In this document: positions 28,006-34,063 of the stretch, one piece after another | Numbering within the stretch: the stretch's first letter is position 1 | Layout: the number at the start of each line of letters is the position of its first letter | Assembly: GCA_018969935.1 (NCBI GenBank) | Contig: JAGWXJ010000003.1 | Span: 1-35,674, forward strand | Direction of reading: 5' to 3' | Source: Alphaproteobacteria bacterium | GTDB taxonomy: Bacteria; Pseudomonadota; Alphaproteobacteria; Micavibrionales; UBA1664 | Length of the DNA stretch: 35,674 nt | Program-made: the position numbers and the translations under genes | The notes under the pieces: generated by a model | Seen by the model: the letters and a program-made list of their open reading frames with translations, nothing else | What the model was told of the DNA's origin: nothing | Databases searched by the model: none

Positions 28006-28158
28006 ATGTTTGGTCTATCGCTCAAAATTACGGAGTTTTTCCCCGGTGATCTCACGGCTATCTTCGGCAACAAATGGCTTTGCCCCCAGCAGGAAACCGA
28101 AAAGTACAAAACCTACGGTGATTGCTACACCTGCCCCGGCACGCTGACGTTCAGCTGA
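28006..28158 (+). CDS. 50-aa small protein with CxxC
   Basis: AAGGAG (27993-27998) 7 nt before ATG; MFGLSLKITEFFPGDLTAIFGNKWLCPQQETEKYKTYGDCYTCPGTLTFS. Confidence 0.55.
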   Translation: MFGLSLKITEFFPGDLTAIFGNKWLCPQQETEKYKTYGDCYTCPGTLTFS

Positions 28159-28212: not shown

Positions 28213-29043
28213 ATGGACTCGAAGCCGTTCGACATCTGCATGCATTTCCGCGCCGCGTCTGCGCAGGTGCATGTTGTCGACCCGAAGATCGCGGGCTCTT
28301 ACGAACTGCTGGAGCAAGCGTATAACGAGATGCTTGTCACAACCTTCCCCGAGGAAGCCCCCTACGAAACGCTCGAAAAATGGCACAGGCGCCTTGAAGC
28401 CGCCGACGCTCCCTCCCGCTATATAATCGGCATCTCGGGCGAACATCTGGACAACCCGAAAAAACGCAAGCTCATGGGCCTGTTTGTCGGCATCTACTAC
28501 AAGAAGGCCGATGCGGGTGTACTGGCCTACAACATCGTAAAACCCCAGTGGCAAGGTTCGGGCTTGGGCGCGGCCCAAGTAGAAATGCGCCGCAAACTGA
28601 TGCTGGAAGCTGCAAGACAGGAAGGCAAAAAGCTCGGCGGCATCTTCGCCGAATGTAATGACCCCGCCCTGATGCCATCCTCGGAAGACGTGATGGACCC
28701 GCGCAAGCGCATCGAGATGTACGCAAAAATGGGCGGCCTTCGCGTCCCCATCAAATACAGCCTGCAACTGGGCCCCGACCCTGCCGACAAATCCGACAAA
28801 ATGATGCTGATTGCCTTCCCTCACCCCGCAACGGAGGAATATCCGCAGTACCGCTGCATCGCCGAATTCATCAGGGGGATTTATGAAGTGCGCGGCTTCG
28901 ACCCCGAAAAGCACCCCGATTTCCACCGCATGGAAAGGCAATTGCGCCGCGGCTTCCACAAAGGCAGACAGTCAACGGAAGGCTGGTTAATACCACTGGT
29001 CAACAAACAGGGTCGTTACGACCGCCACCGCTTCATCCTTTAA
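28213..29043 (+). CDS. GNAT-fold acyltransferase, uncharacterised subfamily
   Basis: Acetyl-CoA motif A: LAYNIVKPQWQGSGLG; promoter TTGCAT-17-TAACTA-7-ATG. Confidence 0.8.
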   Translation: MDSKPFDICMHFRAASAQVHVVDPKIAGSYELLEQAYNEMLVTTFPEEAPYETLEKWHRRLEAADAPSRYIIGISGEHLDNPKKRKLMGLFVGIYYKKADAGVLAYNIVKPQWQGSGLGAAQVEMRRKLMLEAARQEGKKLGGIFAECNDPALMPSSEDVMDPRKRIEMYAKMGGLRVPIKYSLQLGPDPADKSDKMMLIAFPHPATEEYPQYRCIAEFIRGIYEVRGFDPEKHPDFHRMERQLRRGFHKGRQSTEGWLIPLVNKQGRYDRHRFIL

Positions 29044-29977
29044 AGGCGATAATCCCGCCCGGCCACGCCTCGGCACCCTCGCGGCGCTTGCGGCGGATGG
29101 CATCAATCGGCACCGCCCCCACATGCACATCACCCGCATGAGTCATGCTCATGCCGTAGCTGGGCTCCGATTGCAAAATGATGCCGTCTACAGCCATATC
29201 CATCTCGCACGGGCCGTAAATGGCGGCACCCGCAAAATTGGTTTCGCGCCCCACAAGGTAGGGCGGCACGCCAACCCCGCCGACAGCCGCCACGCCCATC
29301 ATGCCCTCGACGGCCCGCGCGCGGCAATTCAGGAACACGCGGTTGTATCCTGATGGATGCATCGTCATGGAAGGCACTAGAAGCACCTCGATCCCCTCGT
29401 GCATCAGGGCATGCACCACAGCCGATTGCTGGACATCAAGGCATACAAGCACGCCCACCTTCACGCCGTTCAGCATGAATGACGATATTGTCTGCCCGCC
29501 CTGCATGTTGTCGCCCTGCTCGTCCAGCTCCCACGGCGTCAGCACCATCTTGTCCTGCGTCAGCACCAACGTGCCATCAGCCCCGAAGACATAGGCGCGG
29601 TTGAAATACCGCGTCAGCGCCTCGTTCTTGCGGGTGTCGTTAAACTGTTTGAAATACGGCTCCGGATACGGCTTGGGCGCCCGCACGGGATACGAGCCCG
29701 CCAGAATCGCCAACCCCGTTTTTTTGGCAACGGCGGCAACGCCAGCCAACCCCGCTTCGTTTTGTGACTCCGTCCACTCGAAGCCGTCACCCGCCTTCAG
29801 ATCCTTCGGCGCAAACTGGTACCAGTGCACGCATGCATATTCGGGCAGCACCAGAATGTCCGCATTCTGCGCCTTTGCGGCTAATGCCTTTTCTTCGAGA
29901 AGCGCAATCCACGCCTCCATCGAAGCGACGGGAAACGAAAAATCGATAGGCCAGAGGGCAACGCGGAAATCAGTCAT
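29033..29977 (-). CDS. Carbon-nitrogen hydrolase (nitrilase superfamily)
   Basis: Catalytic triad E (VLPEY), K (QDKMVLTPWE), C (VCLD); RARAVE. Confidence 0.9.
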   Translation of the reverse strand: MTDFRVALWPIDFSFPVASMEAWIALLEEKALAAKAQNADILVLPEYACVHWYQFAPKDLKAGDGFEWTESQNEAGLAGVAAVAKKTGLAILAGSYPVRAPKPYPEPYFKQFNDTRKNEALTRYFNRAYVFGADGTLVLTQDKMVLTPWELDEQGDNMQGGQTISSFMLNGVKVGVLVCLDVQQSAVVHALMHEGIEVLLVPSMTMHPSGYNRVFLNCRARAVEGMMGVAAVGGVGVPPYLVGRETNFAGAAIYGPCEMDMAVDGIILQSEPSYGMSMTHAGDVHVGAVPIDAIRRKRREGAEAWPGGIIAFKG

Positions 29978-29999
29978 CCGGATAGGTTAATTTTTTTCT

Positions 30000-30029
30000 T
30001 TGACAGGGGGTAGAAAATATTTGTATCAC
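30000..30029 (+). promoter_or_regulatory. Sigma70 promoter of the polyamine operon leader
   Basis: TTGACA (30000-30005)-18 nt-TATCAC (30024-30029); predicted start near 30036. Confidence 0.65.
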
Positions 30030-30160
30030 GCCCCTAATTGACTCATAATGTGAGTCATCACGTACGTGCCTCTGGCCTGAAATAGTGGTTTATGTAACGG
30101 CGTAAAACTTGGGTTGAATTGGGGACCAAGCCCCACAACTTTGAATTAGGGTTTTATGTC

Positions 30161-30280
30161 ATGATCACTTTTACAACTGCCTGGGGCCACACGCCCCCCA
30201 TAGGAATGGAAATTGGTTCTTCCACTCACCTGATTGGGCACGGCGTGCTTTCGCACGCATCGACCCGTCGCAACGGATAA
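30161..30280 (+). CDS. Putative 39-aa leader peptide (uORF) of the ornithine decarboxylase operon
   Basis: Hand translation: MITFTTAWGHTPPIGMEIGSSTHLIGHGVLSHASTRRNG*; AGGG 9 nt upstream; below the ORF-track length cutoff. Confidence 0.6.
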   Translation: MITFTTAWGHTPPIGMEIGSSTHLIGHGVLSHASTRRNG

Positions 30281-30356
30281 ACGGTCAAGGCTTTAGAACT
30301 TCCGGCTTTTAATATGGCCGGGGGAACGAAGCCCTATCCGCTTTCCTCGATGGAGA
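30243..30356 (+). promoter_or_regulatory. Structured cis-regulatory leader RNA (possibly related to the alphaproteobacterial speF leader)
   Basis: Stems GCGTGC/GCACGC, CCGT/ACGG, CGGATA/TATCCG, GGCTTT/GAAGCC, CTTCCGGC/GCCGGGGG, and TTTCC/GGAGA over the RBS. Confidence 0.55.
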
Positions 30357-30364
30357 TGCGCACG

Positions 30365-31570
30365 ATGTCAAACATCATCACCCCCCAAAGCTTTGCCAAC
30401 CGCACGCCGCGCCAAGTGGCCCTGCCCCCTCATGCCTATACGGGCGAGGTATCGGACGTTGTGCGCCAGCTGGCCCCCGTCAACCCGCTGTACATCATGT
30501 GGCCGGAACGCATTGCCGAAGCGGCAAAACAATTCCTGACCCAATTCCCCGGCGAAACGGTTTACGCAACCAAATGCAACCCAGACAAAATCGCGATCCA
30601 GACCATGTATCGCGCTGGCGTCCGCGCATTTGATGTCGCCTCCATCGGCGAGGTCCGCCTCGTCCGCAAGCTGGCCCCCAAAGCCAAGCTGTACTTCATG
30701 CACACCATCAAGTCGCCCGAGGCGATTGCCGAGGCCTACAAGGTCCACGGCGTCCGCGCCTTCGTGCTCGACAGCATGGATGAGCTTTACAAGATCATGC
30801 GCGCAACCGAACTCGCTCAGGACCTCGAGCTGTTCGTGCGCATGGCCCTGCCGAAAAACAGCAAAGCCCAGATCGACTTCTCGACCAAATTCGGGGCCCT
30901 GCCCTACGATGCAGCAGACTTGCTTAAAGCCTGCCGCCCCGTAGCCTCGCGCCTTGGCCTCTGCCTGCACGTGGGCACCCAGTGCACCGACCCTGCCGCC
31001 TACAAGCGCGCAGTGAAAGTGGCGGCGCAAGTGCTCAAGGCATCCAAAGTATCCATCGACGTCCTCGACGTTGGCGGTGGCTTCCCCGTGGAATACCCCG
31101 GCTCCCAGCCCCTGCCCCCGTTCCAGGATTTCGTGGACACCATCACGAGCGCCCTCAAGGCCCAGAAGATGGATACCATCCCCCTCATGTGCGAACCGGG
31201 CCGCGCGCTCGTGGCCAACGCCGTATCCCTCGTGGTGCGCGTGGAAGGCCGCAAGGGCAACCTGCTGCACATCAACGACGGCACCTACGGCGGCCTCTTT
31301 GACGCGGGCGCCCAAGTGCGCGCGCGTTATGCCACCAAAGTCATCTCGCGTAACGGCACCGCCCGCCGCGAGCAGGATCTCGTCCCCTACCGTTTCGCAG
31401 GCCCTACCTGCGATTCCATCGACATGATGAAAGGGCCGTTCATGCTGCCCTCCGACATCGTGGCAGGCGACTGGATTGAAATTCAGACCATGGGCGCCTA
31501 TTCTCAGGCCCTGAGGTCGAACTTCAACGATTTCGGTCACGCCGACCAAATCGTGATGAAAAAGATTTAA
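30365..31570 (+). CDS. Fold-type III PLP-dependent ornithine (/lysine) decarboxylase
   Basis: YATKCN (PLP Lys), FDVAS, KFG, HVGTQ, DVGGGF, EPGR, NDGTYG, GPTCDSID, GAYS; GGAG RBS at 30352. Confidence 0.92.
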   Translation: MSNIITPQSFANRTPRQVALPPHAYTGEVSDVVRQLAPVNPLYIMWPERIAEAAKQFLTQFPGETVYATKCNPDKIAIQTMYRAGVRAFDVASIGEVRLVRKLAPKAKLYFMHTIKSPEAIAEAYKVHGVRAFVLDSMDELYKIMRATELAQDLELFVRMALPKNSKAQIDFSTKFGALPYDAADLLKACRPVASRLGLCLHVGTQCTDPAAYKRAVKVAAQVLKASKVSIDVLDVGGGFPVEYPGSQPLPPFQDFVDTITSALKAQKMDTIPLMCEPGRALVANAVSLVVRVEGRKGNLLHINDGTYGGLFDAGAQVRARYATKVISRNGTARREQDLVPYRFAGPTCDSIDMMKGPFMLPSDIVAGDWIEIQTMGAYSQALRSNFNDFGHADQIVMKKI

Positions 31571-31580
31571 GGAGAAAAAT

Positions 31581-32807
31581 ATGGATAGCGTACTGATTAT
31601 CGGCGCCGGCGGCGCAGGTTCGGTTGTGGCCAAAAAATGCGCCATGAACCCCGATGTGTTCAAGAAAATCCACTTGGCGTCCCGTACGCTCTCGAAGTGC
31701 GAGGCCATCGCGCGCGAGTGCAAAAGCACGGTCACGACCTCGCAGGTGGACGCCGATGACACGCAACAGGTCATCAAGCTCATCGAAAAGGTGAAGCCCG
31801 ATCTGCTCATCAACATGGCCCTGCCGTATCAGGACCTCACGATCATGGATGCGTGCTTGGCAACAGGCGTCCACTACATGGACACCGCCAACTACGAACC
31901 CAAGGACGAAGCCAAGTTTTCCTACAAATGGCAGTGGCCCTACCACGACAAGTTCAAGGAAAAAGGCATCATGGGCGTGCTCGGCTGCGGCTTTGACCCC
32001 GGCATGTCCAACATCTACTGCGCCTACGCTCAAAACCAGCTGTTCGATGAAATCCATACCATCGATATCGTCGACTGCAACGCAGGTGACCACGGCCACG
32101 CCTTTGCCACCAACTTCAACCCCGAAATCAACATCCGCGAGGTAACCCAACGCGGCAAATACTGGAAAGACGGCCAGTGGATTGAAATTGATCCGCTCTC
32201 CATCGCCTGCATGGTCGATTACCCTGAAGTCGGCCCCAAAAAGTCTTACCTGATTTATCACGAGGAAGAAGAGTCTCTGGTCAAGAACATCCGTGGCCTC
32301 AAGCAAATCCGCTTCTGGATGACCTTCTCGGATAACTACATCAAGCACCTCGATGTCCTGCAAAACGTGGGCATGACCCGCATCGACCCCGTTATTTACA
32401 ACGGCGTCGAAATCATCCCGCTGCAGTTCCTCAAGGCCCTGCTGCCCGAGCCGTCATCCTTGGCTGAAAACTACACGGGCAAAACCTCCATCGGTTGCAT
32501 CTTCGAAGGCACCAAAGGCGGTAAACCCGTTAAAAAGTTCATCTACAACGTCTGCGACCACGCCAAAACGAACACCGAACTGGGCGCACAGGCCGTGTCC
32601 TACACCACGGGCGTACCAGCAGTCACGGGCGCGATGATGATGTTCAAAGGCATCTGGAAGGGTGCGGGCGTGTTCAACGTAGAACAACTGCCGCCCGAGC
32701 CGTTCATGGAAGAAGTGGCCAAACAAGGCCTGCCGTGGCACGTCAAGGACCTCGACGCCAAAACAGAAGCCGAACTCAAAGGCGCAAAAGAACTCAAAGC
32801 CGCATAA
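31581..32807 (+). CDS. Carboxy(nor)spermidine dehydrogenase (saccharopine dehydrogenase family)
   Basis: IIGAGG, NMALPYQDL, YMDTANYE, GFDPG, FATNFNPEINIRE, HEE, QAVSYTTGVPA; AAGGAG RBS; adjacent to nspC. Confidence 0.93.
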   Translation: MDSVLIIGAGGAGSVVAKKCAMNPDVFKKIHLASRTLSKCEAIARECKSTVTTSQVDADDTQQVIKLIEKVKPDLLINMALPYQDLTIMDACLATGVHYMDTANYEPKDEAKFSYKWQWPYHDKFKEKGIMGVLGCGFDPGMSNIYCAYAQNQLFDEIHTIDIVDCNAGDHGHAFATNFNPEINIREVTQRGKYWKDGQWIEIDPLSIACMVDYPEVGPKKSYLIYHEEEESLVKNIRGLKQIRFWMTFSDNYIKHLDVLQNVGMTRIDPVIYNGVEIIPLQFLKALLPEPSSLAENYTGKTSIGCIFEGTKGGKPVKKFIYNVCDHAKTNTELGAQAVSYTTGVPAVTGAMMMFKGIWKGAGVFNVEQLPPEPFMEEVAKQGLPWHVKDLDAKTEAELKGAKELKAA

Positions 32808-32809
32808 GC

Positions 32810-32839
32810 AAAAATCCCCGCTACGGCGGGGATTTTTTT
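32810..32839 (+). terminator. Intrinsic terminator between the dehydrogenase gene and nspC
   Basis: AAAAATCCCCGC-TACG-GCGGGGATTTTTTT. Confidence 0.88.
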
Positions 32840-32875
32840 ATGGCGCAAGCCCTAACCCCGCACTATCTTTTCAAC

Positions 32876-34063
32876 ATGAAAAACGCATCCCGCCTGCCAC
32901 TCGCAACCATGCACACACCCGCCTATGTCGCAGATGTGGCAGCCATCCGCCAGAACCTCGAACGTGCTGACAAAATCCGCAAAGGCGCTGGCTGCAAGGT
33001 GCTGCTGGCCACCAAGGCGTTTTCGTTTACCGCCCTCTTTCCCATGATGCGCGACTATCTGGACGGCACGACCGCCAGCGGCCTCTACGAAGCCAAAATG
33101 GGCGCTGATTACTTCGGCAAGGAAATCCACGTCTACGCCCCCGCCTACACCGATGCCGAACTGGAAGGATTGGCAAAGCTGACCGACCACATCTACGTGA
33201 ACTCCCCATCCCAGCTCGCACGCTACCTGCCCATCCTGAAGGGCAAGAAAATCGGCATCCGCATCAACCCCGAATATTCGCTCAGCACCGTCGGCGGCGA
33301 GCTTTACGACCCCTGCGCCCCCTGCTCGCGCTTCGGCACCCGCAAGGACCAGCTGGATGATTTGCCGTGGGAACACATCCACACCCTCCATGCCCACGTC
33401 CTGTGCGAAAGCCGTACCGCCGCGGGCACTATCGGCCTCATCGACACCCTCGATGAAAAATTCGGCGCCTACGTTAAACGCGTTAAAGCCGTGAACTTGG
33501 GTGGCGGGCACTTCTTCAACGATGCCGGTTTTGAAATCGAGCCACTAATCGCCCGCATCAAAGCCTTCCGCGAAAAATACGGCGTCGAAGTCATCCTCGA
33601 ACCCGGCGGTACGCTTGTGTATGATGCGGGTTATCTGGTTACATCCGTCATCGATGTCCACAAAAACGGCGATACGCAAATCGCCATCCTCGACAGCTCG
33701 GCTTCCTGCCACATGCCCGACATCATCGAAACCAACGGCGAATTCACGCCAGAAATTGTCGGCGCAACCCGCGACCTGATGGATGGCGCATACCCGCACC
33801 ACTACCTCATGGGCGGCAAAACCTGCATGACGGGCGACTTCATCGCAACCGCCTACGCCTTCAGGGAACCACTCAAAATCGGCGATAAAGTCGTCTTTTG
33901 CGACCAGATGCAATACAGCTTCGTCAAGGACACCACCTTCAACGGCACCCCGCTGCCCGATATGGCTGTCCTGCACGAAGACGGCCGCTACGAAGTAGTC
34001 CAGACTTACGGTTACGAAGACTTCCTCCGCCGCGTCGGCGGCCCCGTCAAAATATCAATGTAA
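32876..34063 (+). CDS. nspC: Carboxy(nor)spermidine decarboxylase
   Basis: TPAYV, LLATKAFS, TASGLYEA, RINP, YDPCAPCSRFG, HVLCE, NLGGGH, LEPG, CHMPD, TTFNG; start 32876 (32840 possible). Confidence 0.93.
   Translation: MKNASRLPLATMHTPAYVADVAAIRQNLERADKIRKGAGCKVLLATKAFSFTALFPMMRDYLDGTTASGLYEAKMGADYFGKEIHVYAPAYTDAELEGLAKLTDHIYVNSPSQLARYLPILKGKKIGIRINPEYSLSTVGGELYDPCAPCSRFGTRKDQLDDLPWEHIHTLHAHVLCESRTAAGTIGLIDTLDEKFGAYVKRVKAVNLGGGHFFNDAGFEIEPLIARIKAFREKYGVEVILEPGGTLVYDAGYLVTSVIDVHKNGDTQIAILDSSASCHMPDIIETNGEFTPEIVGATRDLMDGAYPHHYLMGGKTCMTGDFIATAYAFREPLKIGDKVVFCDQMQYSFVKDTTFNGTPLPDMAVLHEDGRYEVVQTYGYEDFLRRVGGPVKISM

Follow-up and report, generated by a model that had tools for sequence, protein, structure and literature searches.

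The speF element, which lies in the 5′ leaders of ornithine decarboxylase (ODC) genes, has reportedly been an orphan regulatory RNA since 2005. By its published description, conservation begins at the transcription start and runs into a stem capped by a variable insert, and the speF RNA by itself bound none of six candidate ligands in vitro (Corbino et al. 2005). The Smr45C (ar45) RNA of S. meliloti is described as an Hfq-binding small RNA (sRNA) that was detected experimentally, matches the 5′ region of speF and occurs in constant synteny with an ODC gene (del Val et al. 2012). The nearest published idea is the odc1 (uORF-25-1) motif, an alphaproteobacterial ODC leader with a conserved upstream open reading frame (uORF) and a long hairpin that sequesters the ribosome-binding site (RBS) in its 3′ shoulder. 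Two UUG starts 2 nucleotides (nt) apart are given for it, with a fixed 11-codon uORF overlapping the main ORF out of frame, and its authors propose control of the translation start (Brewer et al. 2021, PMC8632094). Here we analyzed a stretch of 35,674 nt from a bacterium of the alphaproteobacterial order Micavibrionales (contig JAGWXJ010000003.1, positions 1 to 35,674; hereafter the window), in which a 39-codon uORF precedes the gene of an ODC-like decarboxylase. The original prediction had taken this uORF for an independent arrest peptide that senses ornithine, arginine or polyamines. On balance, we favor the reading that it is the translated expression platform of an unrecognized polyamine leader of the speF/ar45 type, gated by a fold that sequesters its Shine-Dalgarno (SD) sequence. 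This reading builds on what the comparison shows: the core that the 5′ domains share, a conserved predicted SD helix, an AUG set at a fixed distance, and a conserved uORF with coding-type substitutions.

Translation of 30161–30280 gives MITFTTAWGHTPPIGMEIGSSTHLIGHGVLSHASTRRNG*, a peptide of 39 codons with a PP pair, four histidines and the arginine codons CGT CGC two codons ahead of the TAA stop. The stop lies 84 nt before the ATG at 30365. All these properties of the original prediction were reproduced, including the leader of about 330 nt. The ATG at 30365 is the likeliest start of the decarboxylase, judging from GGAG at 30352–30355 and from the nearest relative (L002), in which the longer frame from 30314 is interrupted by a stop codon. 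The length of the leader is consistent with the positions of a promoter-like TTGACA and TATCAC, read by eye, and transcription would start near 30036; in relatives, TATAAT-like boxes lie 8–12 nt 5′ of the conserved core. A promoter and terminator scan of 29800–30500 returned zero promoters and zero terminators at the scan threshold.

When the 329-nt leader was shuffled 2000 times with its dinucleotide content preserved, an ATG-initiated ORF of at least 39 codons arose in 857 cases (43%), and ORF length was therefore rejected as evidence for the uORF. Its reality rests on conservation, which exceeds chance. As the original prediction required of a genuine leader peptide, a uORF stands at the same place in orthologous leaders: in all five genomes of the genus with an assembled ODC 5′ region (G000, G001, G003, G004 and G006), in the metagenome contig L084, and widely outside the genus. 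The leader contains the following features.

30000–30029, plus strand: promoter-like TTGACA (30000–30005) and TATCAC (30024–30029) separated by 18 nt, read by eye
30039–30057, plus strand: genus-specific 5′ hairpin UGACUCA-uaaug-UGAGUCA, from compensatory changes
30058–30108, plus strand: conserved 5′ RNA domain of 51 nt with pairings P1 and P2 and a variable tip, from the covariance model R1 and pairing counts
30103–30116, plus strand: anti-SD linker UAAAACUU (30103–30110) and GGGUUG (30111–30116), from the minimum free energy (MFE) fold
30120–30135, plus strand: hairpin H1, UGGGG-accaag-CCCCA, from compensatory changes and the MFE fold
30148–30156, plus strand: SD sequence AGGG and 3′ strand of the predicted SD-sequestering helix, from the MFE fold
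30161–30280, plus strand: 39-codon uORF, from translation, conservation and the ratio of nonsynonymous to synonymous differences (pN/pS)

Leaders of relatives were collected by using the ODC protein as an unbiased handle and then extracting the upstream regions; the ODC relatives among named records are Micavibrio-like metagenome-assembled genomes. The covariance model R1 was built only from alignment A2, which holds 34 unique Micavibrionales 5′ domains. Just 3′ of the TATAAT-like box these leaders share a near-invariant core, (A)CGYACGUGYC-UAUGGCC...[variable]...GGUUAUGYAACGRCGU, in which P1 pairs ACG:CGU, CGU:ACG and GC:GC, and P2 pairs UGGCC:GGUU(U)A. In A2, 94.2% of the P1/P2 cells were paired, compared to 21–47% with slid partners, and three pairs were changed on both sides. 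R1 matched the window with 57.5 bits (E 2.8e-15). Within the genus, the hairpin at 30039–30057 keeps its pairing through compensatory changes in L003 (UUAACUCCA..UGGAGUUAA) and through G:U pairs in L004, a pattern that argues for an RNA rather than a DNA operator.

The same core was found in known leaders. Six canonical speF loci carry TCGCACGTGCC..[insert]..AAGCAACGACGG immediately 5′ of the RF00518 match, and R1 matched the expected place in five of them (E 3e-4, 4e-3, 0.012, 0.024 and 0.14), with no match in L044. The Rfam ar45 model, RF02347, spans this core stretch in L041 and L043 (53–58 bits), and the ar45 core hairpin CGCACGUGCC ... GCAACGACGG was recovered in window-type leaders through the consensus line and reciprocal R1 matches. 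As judged by these alignments, the 5′ domain shares its core with ar45/Smr45C, which corresponds to the 5′ part of the speF element, in a form that Rfam does not recognize. When compared to all of Rfam, the window leader had no match at the gathering score, and 29900–30450 had none even at E≤10; the same was true for the speF leader model named in the original prediction. RF00518 (cut-off 37 bits) exceeded its cut-off in none of 41 relatives and, as a positive control, in 5 of 151 class genomes, while RF02347 (cut-off 40 bits) gave no match at E≤0.5 in nine Micavibrionales loci. Likewise, 20 class-level loci found with R1 matched no Rfam family at E≤0.01. The kinship of the 5′ domain speaks against the independence from the catalogued alphaproteobacterial leader that had been proposed for this locus.

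In the MFE fold, the linker directly 3′ of the domain closes over the SD sequence: 30103–30110 pairs with 30149–30156 and 30111–30116 with 30136–30141, enclosing H1. The SD sequence is spaced 9 nt from the AUG at 30161, and H1 carries compensatory changes within the genus (GAGG/CCUC in L003, GGGU/ACCC in L004). MFE folds were computed for the linker-to-AUG segments of 74 unique leaders. In 70 of these, the first 22 nt of the linker paired with at least two SD guanines, compared to 38% with shuffled linkers. The sequence of the SD helix varies by lineage (UCCUUUUUGG:CCGAGAGGGA, UAAAACUU:AGGGUUUUA, AUCUUGUAG:CAUAGGGU), which, on the predicted pairings, amounts to covariation at the level of the whole helix. 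The unit of SD and AUG is located 37–59 nt 3′ of the element in 22 of 23 class-level loci. The window leader folded better than all of 100 shuffled versions (z −4.09), and the RNA fold looks more switch-like than the peptide does.

Three features of the uORF bear on the question of selection on the peptide.

30179–30202, plus strand: conserved codons 7–14, AWGHTPPI, overlapping H2, from the genus comparison
30183–30197, plus strand: hairpin H2, GGGGC (30183–30187), cacac, GCCCC (30193–30197), overlapping the conserved codons 7–14
30260–30280, plus strand: C-terminal codons S-T-R-R-N-G-stop, from the peptide comparison

The pN/pS was 0.52 in frame for codons 1–18 and 0.60 overall, compared to 1.0–1.26 in the other two frames, in a sample of 27 non-independent pairs from eight groups of close relatives. 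This is the synonymous-biased variation that the original prediction had anticipated (0.52 in frame, about 1.2 in the other frames). Over the first 18 codons the alignment is gap-free except for a single one-codon gap in L003, so that little alignment bias is expected there. The substitution pattern suggests that the uORF is translated and that its peptide is under moderate selection. AWGHTPPI is identical in four of the five other leaders from the genus, whereas L003 has F instead of I, and the differences within these codons are mostly synonymous (GGC/GGA, ACG/ACC, CCC/CCA/CCT, ATA/ATT).

At the C-terminus, the proposed ending H-x2-TRRN-x-stop did not hold. L002 has RL in place of the two arginines, and four genus-level uORFs end at 27–28 codons (...RQRA, ...RKRA, ...LKRA and ...LVNA). 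What recurs is S-x-R-x-[N/I]-G-stop, in six peptides: STRRNG (window), STRLNG (L002/P0002 and P0003), SGRLIG (P0004), SSRVNG (L053) and TSRING (L085). L053 and L085 belong to a lineage with about 56% ODC identity and use AGC/AGG where the window has TCG/CGT. P0003 keeps TAWGHTPPIGMExGSSTHLIG and STRLNG, with a variable middle of the peptide. The recurrence is a small but real hint, from these few peptides, of peptide-level selection beside the stop, and it keeps the idea of arrest at termination alive for this sub-family.

Across the class, the peptides have little in common beyond Gly and Pro or Ser, which are shared because the G-run and the C-run of H2 are read in a fixed phase. The residue before the Gly varies (W, R, G, L, E, Q), its last two bases remaining GG. 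The G-run is always read NGG GGN, with AUG-to-run distances of 17, 20, 23, 26 and 29 nt; as a statistic this phase was set aside, since the lineages are related and fused forms must hold the frame anyway. The uORF peptide matched no NCBIfam family at E≤1 and no Pfam family at E≤10, the presence of a SpeFL model in these libraries being unconfirmed; this agrees with the earlier view that the peptide is unlike SpeFL.

R1 matches were found in 61 of 151 order genomes, mostly as a single copy, and in 20 of 151 class genomes, which were sampled one per family. At 49 of 53 R1 loci a fold-III ODC-like gene follows on the same strand. The other four comprise one S-adenosylmethionine decarboxylase (AdoMetDC), one fusion to a class-I glutamine amidotransferase (GATase) and two contig-end cuts. 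In one family the leader type precedes the AdoMetDC after a 10-codon ORF (L151:1791–2261), and in another it is fused to the GATase (L138:561–1448). The polyamine link of the leader made in the original prediction is borne out by these genes, and the AdoMetDC and GATase loci make the regulon look polyamine-wide rather than restricted to ODC.

The gated AUG does not always open a uORF. Rows without an AUG at the expected place (L012, L131) or cut by the contig (L014, L059, L083) were dropped. Of 51 unique order-level leaders, 28 have a short ORF starting at this AUG and 23 an ORF continuous with ODC; the continuous ORFs bear N-terminal extensions, for example MTDDLxxGGQxASICxFSLS. The class-level loci comprise 15 short ORFs of 10–55 codons, 6 long ORFs and 2 that are cut. 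Short and ODC-fused forms co-occur in one family, and G007 carries one of each before two ODC paralogues. In many lineages, translation from this AUG yields ODC or another protein, so the leader can work without a dedicated sensor peptide.

The genus also has a second leader copy, with 5′ domain, H1, SD and AUG, that drives an ORF of 162–163 amino acids (aa) without a Pfam match (MLMDILTHAPAA... / MLMTMVLAAPAA...). It is located at L113:726–1313 in G001 as the second copy and at L020:773–1364 in G002 as the only copy. In G001 an intrinsic terminator separates this ORF from the ODC leader, whereas the gene after it in G002 encodes a different decarboxylase (34% identity). A match to a second copy in the window was weak (E 0.005 at 28015–28143). 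In L115 (G194), the uORF frame, including the GFFYA stretch whose codons contain the U-run, continues into ODC as an ORF of 446 aa, and other members of the same genus, g20 (L007/L120, L123), have a 55-codon uORF and a separate ODC; the long ORF is either a natural fusion or an assembly indel. In family f8 (L013, L015, L016, L017), the R1 core is missing from the leaders of the ODC orthologues, which instead share a different conserved sequence about 60–140 nt 5′ of ODC (...TATAACCT.AA.TATGAGGGTCG...GGATGCC.TCTA..CAAGAACAAC...), and the R1 matches in f8 genomes sit on contigs other than the ODC contig.

According to the favored reading of a gated, translated uORF, transcription would start near 30036 and produce the 5′ RNA domain, directly followed by the anti-SD strand. 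This strand would pair with the SD sequence around H1 and keep initiation at AUG 30161 off unless the fold is opened. A polyamine-related signal may act on the 5′ domain or on the early-translating ribosome, setting how frequently the uORF is translated, and uORF translation would relay the decision positively to the ODC-CASDH-CANSDC operon. The sign is taken as positive because in sister lineages ODC is translated from this very AUG, the uORF ends right at the ODC start, or it extends up to or through a terminator-like hairpin. Within the genus, Rho, RNA processing and unmasking of the ODC start are candidates for the relay. Direct coupling would be possible in 8 leaders, where the uORF stop and the ODC AUG overlap or are at most 17 nt apart. 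By eye, a hairpin with a U-run was seen inside the uORF in L007, L051, L053 and L085, and just after the uORF stop in L108, L128–L130, L132 and L133; ribosome-dependent antitermination would therefore be possible there.

Short contigs from RNA libraries of two studies cover 30075–30285 at 95–99% identity; these contigs (X15–X18; 151–243 nt, from wastewater and bioreactor metatranscriptomes) match the leader and the uORF only, and no contig compared spans the whole ODC gene. Two contigs of one study end at 30277 and 30282, and X18 of the other study continues past 30285. As these are contigs and not reads, uncovered parts, contig ends and depth carry no evidential weight; at most, the contigs weakly suggest transcription of the leader in close relatives. 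The contigs vary at 30249–30252, which alters residues 30–31 in the variable middle of the peptide.

Several results weigh against the gated uORF as we propose it. The tie to a known leader rests on our own R1 model and on comparison by eye, as no Rfam family, speF and ar45 included, matches the window leader at E≤10. No intrinsic terminator was predicted in the window leader, and pairing between the uORF and the ODC start was no better than in shuffled sequences (fractions 0.08, 0.185, 0.43, 0.275, 0.365 and 0.66 for the six genus leaders). We therefore rejected this long-range pairing as the coupling device, which leaves the relay unsupported in the genus; the MFE partners of the ODC SD differ among the six leaders. 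H2 exceeds its composition weakly, with a mean z of −0.91 and 31 of 72 leaders below −1 (L152 and L155 left out), and its fixed register is 64% paired compared to 40–56% when slid; on these counts it was rejected as a strong structure and kept as a moderate one. The pairs behind the pN/pS values are interrelated, and the protein alignment favors frame 0, mainly after codon 18. Finally, the uORFs of G000 and G004 differ by a pS of 0.03 and a pN of 0.03, compared to 0.62 and 0.09 in the adjacent ODC. This uORF is held at the nucleotide level by RNA function or recombination, and coding alone is insufficient to explain it.

Much of the peptide evidence can also be read as a ligand-sensing arrest peptide, in which the nascent uORF peptide and the ribosome sense ornithine, arginine or a polyamine and set ODC expression, with a stall early at WGHTPP or at the stop after S-T-R-x-N-G. 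We consider this unlikely, although it accounts for the in-frame synonymous excess and for AWGHTPPI, which is kept within the genus via synonymous changes and resembles WGHEPP, WGQNP and GHTPIP in more distant leaders. It would also explain why S-x-R-x-[N/I]-G-stop recurs in six peptides of two families, with differing Ser and Arg codons in L053 and L085, and why P0003 keeps both conserved parts despite its variable middle. Terminator-like hairpins within about 10 nt of the uORF stop in several lineages would suit a stall at termination, and speF RNA alone reportedly bound none of the six ligands in vitro. However, the little that is shared class-wide, Gly and Pro/Ser, is explained by the H2 runs, and a varying residue before the Gly with fixed GG bases is the opposite of what coding would produce. 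Of the six uORFs at genus level, four have other endings, at 27–28 codons. In 23 order-level leaders ODC itself is driven directly, and elsewhere the leader drives unrelated ORFs (MLMDILTHAPAA..., AdoMetDC after a 10-codon ORF, GATase). The absence of any peptide-family match counts against this rival too, and the synonymous near-identity of G000 and G004 points to constraint at the RNA level. Of the original prediction, a conserved, translation-type uORF before polyamine genes stands. An independent leader, the Arg-Arg motif and the need for a sensor peptide do not: the peptide varies freely across the class while the SD helix and the AUG distance persist, and in many lineages the AUG starts ODC or another protein.

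An element acting only as RNA, such as a riboswitch, an sRNA precursor or an RNA bound by a protein or by Hfq, would make the uORF untranslated or an irrelevant by-product of a G+C-rich structured RNA. The 43% of shuffles with an ORF of such length, nucleotide-level conservation beyond coding needs, the Hfq-binding ar45/Smr45C sRNA reported from S. meliloti, the RNA-library contigs that cover the leader only, and the six canonical speF leaders without an AUG-initiated conserved uORF at the matching place would all fit. Nevertheless we judge it quite improbable, since 22 of 23 class loci keep a properly spaced SD and AUG 37–59 nt 3′ of the element, fused lineages demonstrably use the AUG to start a real protein, the pN/pS signal is frame-specific, and the uORF stop abuts or overlaps the ODC start in 8 leaders. 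A DNA operator, with the invariant CACGTG-containing core past the promoter binding a transcriptional repressor and the remaining leader neutral, is very hard to sustain. In most lineages the palindrome GCACGTGC does occupy positions of about +1 to +10 relative to the inferred start, but the genus core GUACGUGC is self-consistent only via G:U pairs, and the core has its pairing partner 30–90 nt away, beyond variable inserts, and both strands carry changes. Moreover, the corresponding RNA was detected experimentally in S. meliloti, and the SD helix would be left unexplained. A broader proposal goes beyond the gated uORF: a leader family extending over a large part of the Alphaproteobacteria (Micavibrionales and 19 further sampled families) that controls polyamine genes by a translated short ORF next to the ar45/speF-type domain, in which the ribosome on the uORF is the polyamine-responsive sensor, through the nascent peptide and the hairpin within the ORF, and from which canonical Rhizobiales speF/ar45 derived by ORF loss. 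We regard it as doubtful; if true, it would explain why speF RNA has bound no metabolite in vitro for 20 years.

The surroundings of the leader contain the following features.

30156–30164, plus strand: mini-ORF AUG UCA UGA whose stop overlaps the uORF AUG (AUGA), from sequence comparison
30299–30324, plus strand: spacer hairpin CUUCCGGCU-uuuaauau-GGCCGGGGG, from the fold and one compensatory pair in L002 (GCGGC..GCCGC)
30352–31570, plus strand: ODC-like fold-III pyridoxal phosphate (PLP) decarboxylase, with SD GGAG at 30352–30355 and start at 30365
31581–32807, plus strand: carboxy(nor)spermidine synthase-like gene, NF043000 with 422 bits (cut-off 800)
32735–34063, plus strand: listed ORF of a carboxy(nor)spermidine decarboxylase-like gene, TIGR01047 with 388 bits (cut-off 409)

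The mini-ORF is present in L001 and L002, takes the form AUG UAG in L004 and is absent from L003 and L084; it is probably incidental. Upstream, the leader borders a divergent CN-hydrolase gene on the minus strand (29033–29977). Downstream, the fold-III PLP decarboxylase is followed by the synthase-like and the decarboxylase-like gene, both of which score under the NCBIfam equivalog cut-offs. With its listed GTG start, the carboxy(nor)spermidine decarboxylase-like ORF shares 73 nt (32735–32807) with the gene before it. Its family match sets in only at residue 60, and translation therefore probably starts downstream of the listed GTG. Elsewhere in the window, a tRNA gene with a long variable arm is located at 694–777 on the minus strand (Rfam RF00005, 61.4 bits). 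The genome assembly of the window comprises 1.85 Mb in 200 contigs.

The results tie a large set of leaders that Rfam misses, in 61 of 151 order and 20 of 151 class genomes, to the 5′ (ar45) domain of speF. Because the domain is placed directly before an SD-sequestering helix and a start codon, regulation would come down to one step, initiation or early elongation at one AUG. This allows for compact constructs of about 130 nt plus the ORF in ligand screens, toeprinting and reporters, and the natural uORF, fused and other-gene variants would separate the roles of RNA and peptide. The regulon of ODC, AdoMetDC and GATase points to a polyamine-related signal.

Our literature search returned no description of an AUG-initiated uORF behind an ar45/speF-type domain, within a comparison that did not extend to the published speF and odc1 alignments; a term look-up of PMC13285730 and PMC10117765 gave no mention of ODC, speF or Smr45C. 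In comparison with speF (RF00518) and ar45 (RF02347), the window leader shares its place in the 5′ leader of an alphaproteobacterial fold-III (COG0019-type) ODC gene. It also shares conservation that starts at the transcription start, a stem core CGYACGUGYC...GYAACGRCG with a variable tip insert, and a CUU-rich linker, a hairpin and then a purine-rich GA(A/G)AGG box. It differs from speF in that the bulged stem-loop of about 80 nt is replaced by the SD-sequestering helix, AUG and ORF; the six canonical speF leaders have no conserved AUG uORF at the matching place. Unlike in ar45, the outer GCCC/GGGC stem and the U-run that end the sRNA of about 148 nt were not found 3′ of 30108, where the terminator scan was empty. 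As the first stem is not followed by a terminator, the window is not expected to give rise to a separate ar45-like sRNA.

RBS sequestration in the 3′ shoulder of a hairpin, as in odc1, is also predicted here (70 of 74 leaders). By their descriptions the two differ, since here a single AUG opens an ORF of 10–55 codons or ODC itself. The SpeFL-speF system of gammaproteobacteria, with its ornithine-sensing arrest peptide (Herrero del Valle et al.), likewise has a short ORF before an ornithine decarboxylase gene and rests on the idea that translating the leader sets polyamine synthesis. In the window, by contrast, the enzyme is of fold III and part of a CASDH/CANSDC operon, a structured 5′ RNA precedes the uORF, and the peptide is not conserved across the class, so that SpeFL may serve as an analogy only. 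In attenuators and coupled leader ORFs of the trpL and tnaC type, translation of a short leader ORF is read out downstream, and some relatives of the window similarly have a hairpin with a U-run within or just after the uORF. The window uORF differs by having no regulatory codons for a cognate amino acid and no predicted terminator, and initiation of the leader ORF is apparently gated by the upstream RNA domain. On the modeled fold, the leader would work like a translational riboswitch or attenuator.

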